Virus record (IMG/VR): IMGVR_UViG_2675903654_000007
Coordinates: 1-8,736 of that record
Source: a virus
Lineage: Duplodnaviria > Heunggongvirae > Uroviricota > Caudoviricetes
Length of the DNA stretch: 8,736 nucleotides
Direction: 5' to 3' (one strand)
Shown: in pieces, positions 1,987 through 8,736 of the stretch
Position numbering within the stretch: the stretch's first letter is position 1
Layout of the letters: every line of letters starts with the position of its first letter
Translations under genes and position numbers: made by a program
The notes under the pieces: generated by a model
What the model was told of the DNA's origin: nothing
Seen by the model: the letters and a program-made list of their open reading frames with translations, nothing else
Database searches by the model: none

Positions 1987-5589
<3,603 letters not shown>

Positions 5590-5615
<26 letters not shown>

Positions 5616-6135
5616 TCAGCAACCCCGATATCAGTTCATCCAGCGCGGCTGCTTTGTTCATGGCTTTGATGATATCCCGTTTCAGGAAATCAACATGTCG
5701 GTTTTCCAGTTCCGGAAAACGCCGCTGCACCGACAGGGGGATCCCGTCGAGAATACTGGCAATTTCACCTGCGATCCGCGACAGCACGAAAGTACAGAAT
5801 GCGGTTTCCACCACTTCAGCGGAGTCTCTGGCATTTTTCAGCTCCTGTGCGTCGGCCTGCGCACGCGTAAGTCGATGGCGTTCGTACTCAATAGTCCCTG
5901 GCTGGAGATCTGTCTCGCTGGCCTGTCGCAGTTCTTCAACCTCCCGGCGCAGCTTTTCGTTCTCAATTTCAGCATCCCTTTCGGCATACCATTTTATGAC
6001 GGCGGCAGAGTCATAAAGCACCTCATTACCCTTCCCACCGCCTCGCAGAACGGGCATTCCCTGCTCCTGCCAGTTCTGAATGGTACGGATACTCGCGCCG
6101 AAAATGTCAGCCAGCTGCTTTTTGTTGACTTCCAT
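5590..6135 (-). CDS. Nu1: Terminase small subunit gpNu1 (181 aa)
   Basis: MEVNKKQLADIFGASIRTIQNWQEQGMPVLRGGGKGNEVLYDSAAVIKWYAERD... matches the lambda Nu1 winged-HTH N-terminus; located immediately downstream of cosB. Confidence 0.95.
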
Positions 6136-6159
6136 TGTTCATTCCACGGACAAAAACAG

Positions 6160-6300
6160 AGAAAGGAAACGACAGAGGCCAAAAAGCCCGTTTTCAGCAC
6201 CTGTCGTTTCCTTTCTTTTCAGGGGGTGTTTTAAATAAAAACATTAAGTTACGAAGAAGAAGAACGGAAACGCCTTAAACCGGAAAATTTTCATAAATAG
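6160..6300 (-). promoter_or_regulatory. cosB-like terminase-binding region with three gpNu1-binding R elements and an AT-rich bend segment between them
   Basis: Three copies of CGTTTCC/GGAAACG between cosN and the Nu1 start (6165..6171, 6205..6211 inverted, 6266..6272), with an AT-rich tract between (6220..6260), the arrangement of lambda cosB R1/R2/R3 plus IHF site. Confidence 0.75.
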
Positions 6301-6312
6301 CGAAAACCCGCG

Positions 6313-6324
6313 AGGTCGCCGCCC
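6313..6324. other. cosN: 12-nt cohesive-end sequence (reverse complement of GGGCGGCGACCT) at the joined genome ends
   Basis: Window + strand reads cgcgAGGTCGCCGCCCcgtagc; the reverse complement is ...TACGGGGCGGCGACCTCGCGGGTTTTCGC, the canonical lambda cos junction. Confidence 0.88.
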
Positions 6325-6346
6325 CGTAGCCTGCCGGATCGCCGGA

Positions 6347-6353
6347 AAGGACC
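6347..6353. other. Probable cosQ element on the right-end side of cosN
   Basis: AAGGACC about 23 to 29 nt from the cosN nick position; the exact sequence and position of lambda cosQ are recalled, not verified. Confidence 0.45.
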
Positions 6354-6561
6354 CAATAAGTGATAATAATTATCATTTATATAAATACCATCACACATCC
6401 CACGTACACCATAAAACCACGACAAATAATCAATTTTGTCCAAGTCATGCATTAATTGATCTGTGTCAACTTAACGTAAAGACATCTTAAGACAATACAA
6501 ATCAGCAGCACTGAACACGGAAAAACACAATGTCATCAAAAAATAAAGCTTCCCAAACCAG

Positions 6562-6702
6562 ATGATTAATCAAATCCATATTGCCCTTGAACGTAAGGGA
6601 TCGGGTAATTTTTCGGCATGGGTTATTGAAGCCTGCAGGAGAAGGCTGGCAACAGATGCAAAGCACCTGCGCCCGGCCAGCATGAAAAATAACGAGAAAT
6701 GA
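6562..6702 (+). CDS. Short ORF (46 aa) with ribbon-helix-helix-like helix-loop-helix, probably an N-terminally truncated remnant
   Basis: MINQIHIALERKGSGNFSAWVIEACRRRLATDAKHLRPASMKNNEK; the G-S-G-N turn between two helices is RHH-like (Arc/MetJ/CopG). In-frame upstream codons hit TAA at 6544..6546 and the upstream ATG at 6530 is out of frame. Below the ORF-track length cutoff. Confidence 0.3.
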   Translation: MINQIHIALERKGSGNFSAWVIEACRRRLATDAKHLRPASMKNNEK

Positions 6703-6834
6703 ACGTTCGGTTACAGGAACCGGTAGCTACTGTCTTCTAACAATATTTCATCTTCATATCCGGCGAAACAAGACTTTACCCTGCAGGGATGTACTGAATA
6801 GCAACAGAGTGATAATTAACTTCTGATAAAATAA

Positions 6835-7161
6835 TCAGGGTGCTGAAGGACTAAAGATAAATGTTTTCTTCACGCCTTTACGCGGCTTGTCCTTCTCAAA
6901 TCGCCATTTTGCCATCGCCTTTACAACCTGCTCATCAAACAGATGGTGCGGCTCTGAACGGATAAACTCAATTCGGGTGACAGTACCATCAGCACCAATA
7001 TCAAACTTCACATCAACCCGTCCCTTTATATAATTTGCCGCGGCATAGGCCGGATATTGTGGTAATGCCTTAACCAACTGTCGAGGCATATCTGTTTTAT
7101 GTTGCGTACAGCCCATAACCAAAGAAGACAACAAAATAATTAACGGAAGATTTCTTTTCAT
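6835..7161 (-). CDS. Small lipoprotein (108 aa) carrying a TonB C-terminal domain, with no TonB N-terminal anchor or proline-rich spacer
   Basis: From ATG 7161: MKRNLPLIILLSSLVMGC (signal peptide with lipobox-like VMGC), then ...LPQYPAYAAANYIKGRVDVKFDIGADGTVTRIEFIRSEPHHLFDEQVVKAMAKWRFEKDKP..., matching the TonB_C signature (E. coli TonB: [55 protein letters not shown]). A second ATG at 7176 lacks an RBS. Confidence 0.75.
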   Translation of the reverse strand: MKRNLPLIILLSSLVMGCTQHKTDMPRQLVKALPQYPAYAAANYIKGRVDVKFDIGADGTVTRIEFIRSEPHHLFDEQVVKAMAKWRFEKDKPRKGVKKTFIFSPSAP

Positions 7162-7181
7162 TCTTATTCCCGGCATAGATA

Positions 7182-7224
7182 AGAATAAGTCTTATTCTAA
7201 CAATGCAGCCCTGTCGGTCATCAA
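7182..7224 (-). promoter_or_regulatory. Candidate sigma70 promoter for the TonB_C lipoprotein gene, with an overlapping perfect palindrome (possible operator)
   Basis: On the - strand: -35 TTGATG (7219..7224), 19-nt spacer, extended -10 TGtTAGAAT (7194..7202). Palindrome AGAATAAG-T-CTTATTCT (7182..7198) overlaps the -10 and start region. Sequence-only prediction. Confidence 0.3.
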
Positions 7225-7836
7225 TCCTCTGCTTAATGGCAATGACAATTATCCGACTTAAATCACAAATCAGACACATGACATAACAGAGTTTGCGAGG
7301 TAACACATCGTCCGGTTTCTTCCACCATCGCACCGGACCAGCGACCATGAGGGGACAACGCCGCGCTCCGTTAACACGGTAAACCCCGGTGTGTATCGTT
7401 TTTGATTATCCCCGCACACTCGCGCAGAGGAGTCTCCCTCTCGGGCTGTGGTCTCTGTTGATGCGGGAATACGGCGACGATACAGTGCATAGTTATGTCA
7501 GGCTAAAATGCCTTTATCAAATCTGGGTAACGCAATCTGCCATTGTTGGCTCCGGTTGTGGTGATGATGTCAAGCAAGCCCATCTTGACTATCTCAACTA
7601 GTCGATTCATGACATATGTCACATTTATACCAACCAGATCATTGCGTTGAGTTTACAACTCAATAATTCTTGGTTGGACGTCAAGTTTTGACGGTATTCG
7701 GGTGGCAGTTGATAGCAATCTTGGAACCGTCCACCTAATAGCTGCTTGTGTGGCGTTTAAATTGTGGAGTGCTCGCAACAGAACTTTTCTTTCTTGTTTG
7801 CGAGCGATGTTTAGCAACTTTTAAGAGAGTTAAGTC

Positions 7837-8067
7837 ATGGAGTTTTTGAAAGAGCATCATTTGCCTTCAATAATTTTTGGAATTTTTTCCGCCATTTTTT
7901 GGATTATTTCATGTTTTGCATCTTCCAAAGAACACCCACCAAAAACGGAACAAGGCAGTTTCTCATCACTGGGTTGTTTTAAAGCCATTGAAATACAAAG
8001 TAAATGGAATAAACGGGCTGCTTTTTGCGCAGCGTTAGCTGTTCTTGCTCAAGTATTTAGCTTTTAG
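7837..8067 (+). CDS. Small hydrophobic protein (76 aa), two predicted membrane segments or a lipoprotein signal; accessory gene in the position of lambda bor
   Basis: ATG at 7837 preceded by AGAGAG about 9 nt upstream. MEFLKEHHLPSIIFGIFSAIFWIISCFASSKEHPPKTEQGSFSSLGCFKAIEIQSKWNKRAAFCAALAVLAQVFSF has an N-terminal hydrophobic stretch ending in IISC (lipobox-like), a basic loop and a hydrophobic C-terminus. AT-rich, opposite strand to the late genes, followed by a hairpin terminator. No similarity to Bor recognised. Confidence 0.6.
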   Translation: MEFLKEHHLPSIIFGIFSAIFWIISCFASSKEHPPKTEQGSFSSLGCFKAIEIQSKWNKRAAFCAALAVLAQVFSF

Positions 8068-8084
8068 TTTCAAAAGTGTAAATC

Positions 8085-8120
8085 AGAACCACTCGTATAG
8101 CGGGTGGTTCTCTGTTTTAT
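8085..8120 (+). terminator. Rho-independent terminator downstream of the 76-aa ORF
   Basis: AGAACCACTCG (8085..8095) pairs with CGGGTGGTTCT (8101..8111) around loop TATAG, followed by CTGTTTTATT. Confidence 0.55.
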
Positions 8121-8183
8121 TCGTGTTGCGACTAAAACTAACTAAAATCACGCATATAAAAGATAATGGGAAAATTATCGCTA

Positions 8184-8621
8184 TCATCGAAGGCATTGCG
8201 TCCTAATGTACTCCTGCAAGTAGTTAACCTGCGCGGTTATCCTGTCGATTCCACTTCGGAGACGGTAATAATTGAGTTCAGCATCTGCTGTAAGTCCTGG
8301 GGTTTCTCCATTGCCCATGCCGCTGGCTCCGGTCGTTGACTTTGCACAGGTGGCGGCGACTTGCAGGCGCTTACGCCCAGCAGAAACATCAGCACGGAGA
8401 CTTTCGATAGTCGCATTAGCATCAGCAAGCTCCTTTGTGTATCTGGCGTCAAGTTCTGCTACATCACGTTGCCGCTTCTGCATATCAGCGATGATGGATG
8501 TGGCTTTATCGCGCTGCTCTTTGTAGGCGATGGCGTTATCACGGTAATGATTAACAGCCCATGAAAGGCAGACGATGAGGCAGATGACCAGAACGTAGAT
8601 AATCGCGGTTACTCTGCTCAT
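8184..8621 (-). CDS. Rz: Spanin inner-membrane subunit Rz (i-spanin)
   Basis: From ATG 8621: [39 protein letters not shown]...[23 protein letters not shown]..., an N-terminal TM helix plus coiled coil, similar to lambda Rz. The ATG overlaps the endolysin stop (ATGA). The track start at 8633 is a GTG. Confidence 0.85.
8237..8422 (-). CDS. Rz1: Spanin outer-membrane lipoprotein subunit Rz1 (o-spanin), embedded in the +1 frame of Rz
   Basis: ATG at 8422 preceded by AAGGAG 7 nt upstream; [20 protein letters not shown] (lipobox VSAC) then proline-rich [22 protein letters not shown], the lambda Rz1 architecture, entirely inside Rz. An alternative ATG lies at 8416. Confidence 0.7.
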
Positions 8622-8736
8622 TGTTGCCCCCACAAACAGACTTCACGCTCAATCTCACGGCGAGTCATCAGCCCTTTCCATTGCTTACCGCCAGCGTATG
8701 TCCAGCGCCGTAGCTGATCACATGCGCCTTTGATAT
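8618..8736 (-). CDS. R: Endolysin, lysozyme type (not the lambda transglycosylase type), C-terminal 38 codons only
   Basis: Reverse-complement translation ends ...[36 protein letters not shown], which I recognise as the C-terminus of phage 21 / E. coli RrrD-type lysozymes; lambda R ends differently. 5' end outside window. Confidence 0.8.

Follow-up and report, generated by a model that had tools for sequence, protein, structure and literature searches.

A small antisense gene beside Rz

The window analysed here, an 8,736-nucleotide stretch of the tailed-phage record IMGVR_UViG_2675903654_000007, is the late region of a lambda-like prophage in reverse orientation, and the element under study is a coding sequence for a 76-amino-acid, predicted two-helix membrane protein on its + strand at 7837–8067 (ATG at 7837, TAG at 8065–8067). 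This open reading frame (ORF) runs antisense to the late operon and converges on Rz, the last late lysis gene (8184–8633, − strand; i-spanin, Pfam Phage_lysis, E = 1.1e-34), in which Rz1 is embedded (8237–8452). The right cos end of lambda aligns to approximately position 6325 of the window, and the ORF occupies the Rz–cos interval in the orientation of lambda bor. An earlier examination of the same DNA, referred to below as the sequence-only reading, had reported the ORF, its antisense orientation and its bor-like location, all of which we find as described.

The accompanying signals named by that reading are likewise present. A Shine-Dalgarno-like GAGAG lies at 7825–7829 on the + strand, 7 nt before the ATG, and the homologue in a Citrobacter sedlakii prophage carries GGAG at the aligned place. 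Downstream of the stop codon, an intrinsic terminator (8085–8120, + strand) is formed by a 12-pair stem with a 3-nt loop and a CTGTTTTATT tail. Its strength is well beyond chance: the stem (8085–8111), followed by CTGTTTTATT, has a folding free energy of −18.5 kcal/mol (z = −5.8), and 0 of 200 shuffled sequences fold as well. The Citrobacter locus lacks this terminator, its homology ending exactly at the stop codon. The hairpin region (8072–8115) also shows an 86% match within a gene for a "hypothetical protein" of Escherichia phage Chlobot (PP925838.1, 20872–20915). The AT content of the ORF had been described as well above that of the flanking phage genes, and its GC fraction is indeed 0.364, against 0.516 for Rz, 0.529 for Nu1 and 0.540 for the large terminase gene (terL).

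The locus occurs at 99.5–100% identity in 11 of 5,426 complete Escherichia coli genomes, among them that of enteropathogenic E. coli (EPEC) E2348/69, in which RefSeq annotates the ORF (NC_011601.1, 1294648–1294878) as the hypothetical protein WP_157778920.1. An identical protein is found on 586 contigs of a large protein collection, and the E. coli copies come from animal and human isolates as well as from E2348/69. A first scan of IMG/VR returned identical E. coli copies only, confined to one 2.4-kb block.

A protein family with conserved motifs

The closest informative relative is the C. sedlakii prophage homologue, a protein of 75 amino acids that is 74% identical to the product of the ORF. 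The differences between the two genes fall at first, second and third codon positions in the numbers 13, 12 and 26, the ratio of non-synonymous to synonymous substitution rates (dN/dS, Nei–Gojobori) is 0.19, and the frame of the ORF is the sole one of six that is open in both sequences. Inside a subfamily of 86-amino-acid proteins, dN/dS ranges from 0.06 to 0.17. By these codon comparisons the ORF is under purifying selection, and a chance ORF is excluded.

Sensitive profile searches, which the sequence-only reading had proposed as a check, recovered a family. An exhaustive search of 1.84 billion representatives gave 22 proteins at E ≤ 0.001, most of them 74–99 amino acids long, and a second search gave 34. 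Three long matches (823–2024 amino acids) in which only the loop stretch aligned were spurious. Protein P0003 (74 amino acids, 75% identical; locus L004, 6001–6225, GCA_900448305.1) was dropped as a homologue, being a frameshifted version of the same locus; terminase, Rz and TonB genes near it are also fragmented, which suggests sequencing or assembly indels in that genome. The window protein matches the profile of PHROG 14357 (E = 1.3e-6, residues 3–73 against positions 10–87 of 90), as do 16 of 20 relatives, the best at E = 1.9e-32, and the two are alike in length (approximately 75–100 amino acids, the size range of the family) and in their two-helix layout. The description of the protein as unrecognised is thus superseded, since it is already a RefSeq hypothetical protein and belongs to a PHROGs group. 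That the ORF is a real gene and a member of the PHROG 14357 family we regard as close to certain.

In an alignment of 20 members, W22, Q54, N58 and A62 are invariant. The first helix carries the conserved motif G/A-x-x-S-A-x-x-W-x-x-S, and a second conserved motif reads Q-x-K-W/Y-N-x-x-A-A-x-x-A-A ... Q. The E. coli/Citrobacter branch of 75–76 amino acids has a loop about 7 residues shorter than that of the branch of 86–90 amino acids, and the family reaches environmental Pseudomonas, Methylobacterium and a Tatlockia-related (Legionellaceae) metagenome bin. Sequence searches of Pfam, NCBIfam, PADLOC and the PDB gave nothing significant for the protein or the 20 relatives, and PADLOC-DB 2.0 contributed no defence family at E ≤ 1. 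A tblastn search with two family members found no match in 50,697 phage records, a result that low-complexity masking may partly explain. Literature searches for the accession, the PHROG identifier and the peptide found no mention of them.

The sequence-only reading had described a hydrophobic N-terminal segment, a basic loop and a hydrophobic C-terminus. This layout holds: two segments with mean Kyte–Doolittle values of 2.14 and 2.09 flank a loop with six K/R and three D/E residues. AlphaFold2, run with the family alignment, returns a two-helix hairpin (residues 2–26 and 44–75) at a pLDDT of 89. Summed over the 20 members, K and R residues number 113 in the loop, 16 at the N-terminus and 3 at the C-terminus, a distribution that, under the positive-inside rule, predicts a cytoplasmic loop and short termini that both face the periplasm. 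The first transmembrane (TM) helix would accordingly span approximately residues 9–28, the net-basic cytoplasmic loop about 30 residues and the second TM helix approximately residues 61–76. Foldseek comparisons with the PDB and BFVD yielded generic helical hairpins only, all at E > 0.5.

This topology bears directly on a further claim of the sequence-only reading, namely that the first segment ends in a lipobox-like IISC. The letters are there, and I-I-S-C formally fits the pattern [LVI][ASTVI][GAS]C at a gene in the bor position, so that an outer-membrane lipoprotein of the Bor type, processed at IISC, had to be considered. The lipobox is, however, not conserved: Cys26 is found in only 3 of 20 relatives, and close relatives have SSFA, SAFS or SAFA in its place. 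Moreover, the N-terminal region, MEFLKEHH, has one K and two E residues and is net non-positive rather than basic, the protein ends in a second hydrophobic helix, and a profile–profile alignment (hhalign) with Bor gives a probability of 0.08%, in agreement with the earlier remark that the protein does not resemble Bor. We rejected the lipoprotein reading on the grounds of the unconserved cysteine and the non-basic N-terminal region, and consider it very improbable; an inner-membrane hairpin that is not a lipoprotein is the probable form of this protein.

A dead terminase fragment and a variable slot

The ORF lies in a mosaic segment (7519–8158, GC 0.39) composed of a terminase gene remnant, the ORF and its terminator, which replaces the KilA-N region of related phages. 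Homology to phage JLK-2012 stops at 7518, and the common homology of the Rz end restarts at approximately 8159–8191. A comparison of the Rz–cos segment across lambdoid phages, another check suggested by the sequence-only reading, shows that JLK-2012 and the Stx phages share both flanks and have a KilA-N gene in place of 7519–8158, the ORF being absent from them.

Head-to-head with the ORF, on the − strand at 7524–7817, is a decayed 5′ fragment (approximately codons 1–98) of a Terminase_2 small terminase gene (terS), detected by tblastn with the C. sedlakii TerS (E = 1e-20, 55% identity) and damaged by an in-frame stop at approximately 7650 and a scrambled stretch. DNA homology to the Citrobacter prophage (locus L003, 5707–6229) runs over window positions 7550–8068 and spans terS codons 1–89 together with the ORF; in Citrobacter an undamaged terS gene begins 26 nt away from the ORF. 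The working terminase of the window prophage is Nu1/A, with Nu1 at 5590–6135 and the large subunit at 3690–5615, both on the − strand along with W, portal, C and D. A dead Terminase_2 stub in a prophage that uses Nu1/A identifies 7524–7817 as an unannotated pseudogene and the scar of a packaging-module swap. We are confident that the gene came, together with the stub, from a Terminase_2 phage. In the sequence of events that we envisage, the original packaging module would have been replaced by the lambda-type Nu1/A, and the gene would have been kept with about 290 nt of dead terS and its own strong terminator.

The arrangement in Citrobacter is the canonical one for the family. An intact Terminase_2 terS stands head-to-head with the gene at that locus, at locus L023 and in at least 21 of 24 loci of a second IMG/VR scan, with a gap of 17–40 nt between the two genes and with Rz and the endolysin further downstream on the opposite strand. 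Two of the IMG/VR loci (L044 and L045) have an Rz that is 94% identical to that of the window. These two loci carry an intact Terminase_2 terS and a 90-amino-acid allele of the family; of 5,426 E. coli genomes, 11 have this allele complete, and there too it is annotated as hypothetical. Independent remnants of terS are found beside the gene elsewhere, with 26 codons left in a Pantoea prophage that has an Sf6-type terminase and about 112 codons, frameshifted, in Hafnia prophages whose large terminase subunit is of the GpA type and whose small subunit is of the DUF1441 or Nu1 type. In a Yersinia prophage the gene abuts Rz and there is no stub, and in a Pseudomonas prophage it lies in the early region, again on the opposite strand; indeed, in the prophages that were examined it runs antisense to the genes around it. 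The usual home of the family is a slot in lambdoid and P22-like prophages that separates the lysis cassette from the packaging genes, head-to-head with a Terminase_2 terS and antisense to both modules.

What occupies this slot varies. In E. coli GN25 (L025, 2746–3081) an unrelated, soluble protein of 111 amino acids is encoded head-to-head with the same terS 5′ end, and in Cronobacter phage phiES15 (L053, 2584–2802) the slot holds an unannotated and unrelated ORF of 72 amino acids, also soluble cargo. These replacements mark the head-to-head slot as a site for variable accessory genes in Terminase_2 prophages. The terS 5′ end alone occurs in 191 E. coli genomes.

Recognition of the stub changes the meaning of a stem-loop that the sequence-only reading had assigned to the 5′ leader of the gene. 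The underlying 8-bp inverted repeat (7771–7805) exists, with perfect arms GCTCGCAA at 7771–7778 and TTGCGAGC at 7798–7805, but it lies inside the terS stub, at terS codons approximately 4–15. It folds at −14.7 kcal/mol, with z-scores of −2.1 (+ strand) and −3.75 (− strand), and the window contains 8 perfect 8-bp inverted repeats with loops of 3–30 nt compared to 4.5 ± 2.7 in shuffled sequences; taken alone, the repeat is not beyond chance. Each of the six terS 5′ ends compared can form an equivalent hairpin, that of GN25 with its other cargo among them. One compensatory change (A-U to G-C) is seen, along with G-U pairs that work only on the ORF strand; pairing is 100%, and covariation is not significant with six sequences. 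As the hairpin is kept in intact terS genes that face different cargo, it is a property of the terS 5′ end and not a device of this gene.

Expression and candidate roles

The sequence-only reading had proposed an autonomous moron cassette, and much of that description stands. Measured against the concept of a moron in the sense of Juhala and Hendrix, as summarised in PMC3594210, the gene (i) deviates in base composition from its neighbours (GC 0.364 against 0.516–0.540), (ii) is extra DNA relative to homologous phages, with a sporadic presence that leaves it out of JLK-2012 and the Stx phages, and (iii) has its own terminator (8085–8111 and T-tract), in addition to its own Shine-Dalgarno sequence and its antisense orientation. 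What did not stand is the autonomy of transcription as a demonstrated feature, in that no convincing σ70 promoter was found upstream. A promoter must nevertheless exist wherever the gene is expressed, because every neighbouring phage gene points the other way. The moron genes bor and lom and the rexAB operon of lambda are expressed in lysogens (PMC7067206). For the present gene, independent expression in the lysogen is predicted, with the balance tipped only slightly in its favour.

In several relatives, the start of terS may double as a promoter for the divergent gene: a TGcCATAAT sequence that resembles an extended −10 element lies across the complement of the start codon at L023 (approximately 5977–5985), at L007 (approximately 5976–5984) and at equivalent positions elsewhere. 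Neither the window nor the 90-amino-acid allele conserves this sequence.

Four known systems offer comparisons, beginning with the lysogen-expressed Bor of lambda. Our gene has the position and orientation of bor, converging on Rz approximately 1.5–1.8 kb from the right cos end, and is likewise small and AT-rich and a candidate for lysogen expression; Bor differs in being an outer-membrane lipoprotein, whereas the window protein has two TM helices and no conserved lipobox. The gp15 protein of HK97 is a small inner-membrane moron product that confers superinfection exclusion by blocking genome entry (PMC3594210). It is the first-described moron product and provides our working model, although no homology was detected (hhalign probability 0.9% over 5 columns), its gene is co-oriented with the tail genes, and it belongs to the YebO family. 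T4 Imm, a hydrophobic inner-membrane immunity protein of 83 amino acids, is similar in size and, according to its annotation, changes the membrane in such a way that the DNA of superinfecting phages is retained in the periplasm; here again hhalign finds no homology (probability 0.4%), and Imm is expressed early in infection by a lytic phage, not from a prophage. The pid gene of P22 and BTP1 is a lone antisense gene between the Rz lysis gene and terS of a P22-like prophage, as ours is, but Pid is soluble, coiled-coil-like and about 100 amino acids long, and does not adjoin a Terminase_2 terS. Matches of BTP1 and P6 to the region prompted a comparison with Pid, and kinship was rejected for lack of similarity.

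We propose, tentatively, that the ORF is an accessory gene (moron) expressed in the lysogen, whose product resides in the inner membrane and possibly serves in phage exclusion. Its transcription would be independent of the late operon and would start inside or beside the terS stub, and the protein would act in the cytoplasmic membrane through the juxtamembrane motif W22 ... Q54-x-K-W/Y-N58-x-x-A-A. The role that we would expect first is protection of the lysogen from other phages, either by blocked genome entry or by an abortive response at the membrane. Such a role in exclusion or defence, argued by analogy with the systems above, is a doubtful part of the proposal.

Several observations weigh against this proposal. 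A scan of the + strand for consensus σ70 promoters found matches only inside the ORF or about 440 nt upstream, and the best candidate under a loose position weight matrix, CTAATA-17-TAAATT, is weak and would start the RNA at the hairpin. A comparison of 13 upstream regions found no promoter element that is conserved in the window, and the TGcCATAAT over the terS start codon of some relatives is not conserved there. The near identity of the E. coli copies (99–100%) makes them uninformative on selection within the prophage lineage. As regards function, the protein matches nothing in PADLOC and resembles none of HK97 gp15, T4 Imm and Bor, and the fold searches are uninformative. The conserved residues are located on the cytoplasmic side, which is not an obvious site for blocking the entry of DNA from the periplasm. 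The argument for defence is, in short, one from analogy only.

The difficulty with the promoter is also the starting point of an alternative account, that of a silent passenger: the swap of the packaging module would have brought in an intact gene along with the terS stub, cut it off from its native promoter context and left it with no function at present. The searches of the window yielded no promoter, the terS-proximal −10-like sequence has diverged, the adjoining terS is decaying, and E. coli copies that are 99–100% identical in one 2.4-kb block reflect recent spread and provide no test of selection. Nevertheless, the adjoining stub has been broken by a stop and a scrambled stretch while the ORF has stayed intact, the comparison with Citrobacter gives a dN/dS of 0.19, and the gene has both a better Shine-Dalgarno sequence than the Citrobacter homologue and a strong terminator that the latter is without. 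We consider a silent passenger unlikely. We assign a similarly low likelihood to a membrane-damaging effector, a hairpin that would form pores or depolarise the membrane, either as a toxin or as the killer in abortive infection, and would not be a passive exclusion factor. A small hairpin of two TM helices with Ala/Gly/Ser-rich faces (G15xxS18A19; A61A62xxA65A66) would suit oligomerisation, and the gene for a distant member of 83 amino acids (L024, 5733–5984) lies approximately 650 bp upstream of a CBASS-like SAVED/ThiF/JAB cluster. Set against this are the failure to find a cognate antitoxin, an antisense RNA family or a sensor partner, the fact that the gene stands alone on the strand opposite to its neighbours in prophage contexts, and the finding that no Pfam holin, SLATT or toxin family is matched among the 20 members. 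The element that carries the distant member bears an integrase, and the member is co-directional with the SAVED/ThiF/JAB (CBASS-type-II-like) cluster.

The position of the gene invites two further explanations. A modulator of lysis or packaging, acting like a holin or antiholin or as a partner of the terminase at the membrane, would account for the site between Rz and terS and for the tight linkage to terS, a layout that is Rz-adjacent and head-to-head with terS in at least 21 of 24 loci of the second IMG/VR scan as well as at L003, L005 and L023; size and the two TM segments also resemble those of class II holins. Being antisense to the late operon, however, the gene is not co-transcribed with lysis or packaging genes. 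It also persists where the Terminase_2 terS is dead (the window, Pantoea and Hafnia), and a Pseudomonas prophage has its family member in the early region, while non-phage elements carry others. No holin family of Pfam is matched among the 20 members, and the protein differs from holins in that its gene is antisense to S/R/Rz and its hydrophobic C-terminus has no charged residues, where holins have a charged C-terminal tail. This explanation strikes us as improbable, more so than the other three. A small regulatory protein that binds an inner-membrane transporter, sensor or protease, and so serves host physiology or virulence to a purpose comparable to that of lambda Bor or Lom but in the inner membrane, would fit the bor-like position and orientation, the presence in EPEC E2348/69 and in animal and human isolates, and a conserved motif at the cytoplasmic membrane interface, as expected for protein–protein contact. 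The absence of similarity to any characterised factor and the occurrence of the family in environmental Pseudomonas, Methylobacterium and the Tatlockia-related bin, which speaks against a host-specific virulence role, leave it on a par with the silent passenger and the membrane-damaging effector.

A more ambitious extension of the moron proposal is that the family represents a new class of prophage-encoded inner-membrane effector, for exclusion or abortive infection, and that the first ~100 nt of the Terminase_2 terS act as a portable expression socket, made up of a promoter and the hairpin, that serves any accessory gene placed head-to-head with it. The dead terS stubs of E. coli, Pantoea and Hafnia would then have been kept after swaps of the packaging module because they carry these signals. 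We regard this as unlikely, if slightly less so than any of the alternatives just weighed.

The finding is real and ordinary in kind: it adds one more small-membrane-protein moron of unknown function. Small membrane proteins of prophages are a known yet poorly charted source of phage resistance and host modification. The hypothetical annotation and the PHROGs grouping existed before; what the present analysis adds is the definition of the family and its motif, the predicted topology, the canonical head-to-head slot with a Terminase_2 terS, recognition that the stub is a terS pseudogene, and corrected interpretations of the lipobox and the leader hairpin. An anonymous ORF of EPEC E2348/69 and a few other E. 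coli prophages now belongs to a defined family, and the mosaic scar with its dead terminase fragment is useful for annotation. Should the family exclude phages, it would supply one more small inner-membrane exclusion factor, which would be useful and not unexpected.

The remainder of the Rz–cos interval contains two other small genes. At 6835–7176 on the − strand, a protein of 113 amino acids combines a plausible lipoprotein signal (…LLSSLVMGC) with a TonB_C domain (Pfam E = 2.7e-15); its gene is conserved in JLK-2012 and the Stx phages, and the label "Rz-like spanin" that PHROG 1267 gives it is an apparent misnomer. The lipoprotein of the Rz–cos region is the product of this gene and not of the 76-amino-acid ORF. 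At 6562–6702 on the + strand, near cos, an ORF of 46 amino acids belongs to the DUF3950 / YlcI–YnfO family (PHROG 949, E = 1.2e-16), adding a second small gene that runs against the late operon. An Rfam scan of 6100–8736 found no RNA family except for weak miRNA-like palindrome matches near cos. These matches (E = 0.12–0.66) fall on a palindromic stretch at 6154–6221, just upstream of Nu1 on the cosB side of cos, which is probably a symmetry of terminase or IHF sites rather than an RNA gene.

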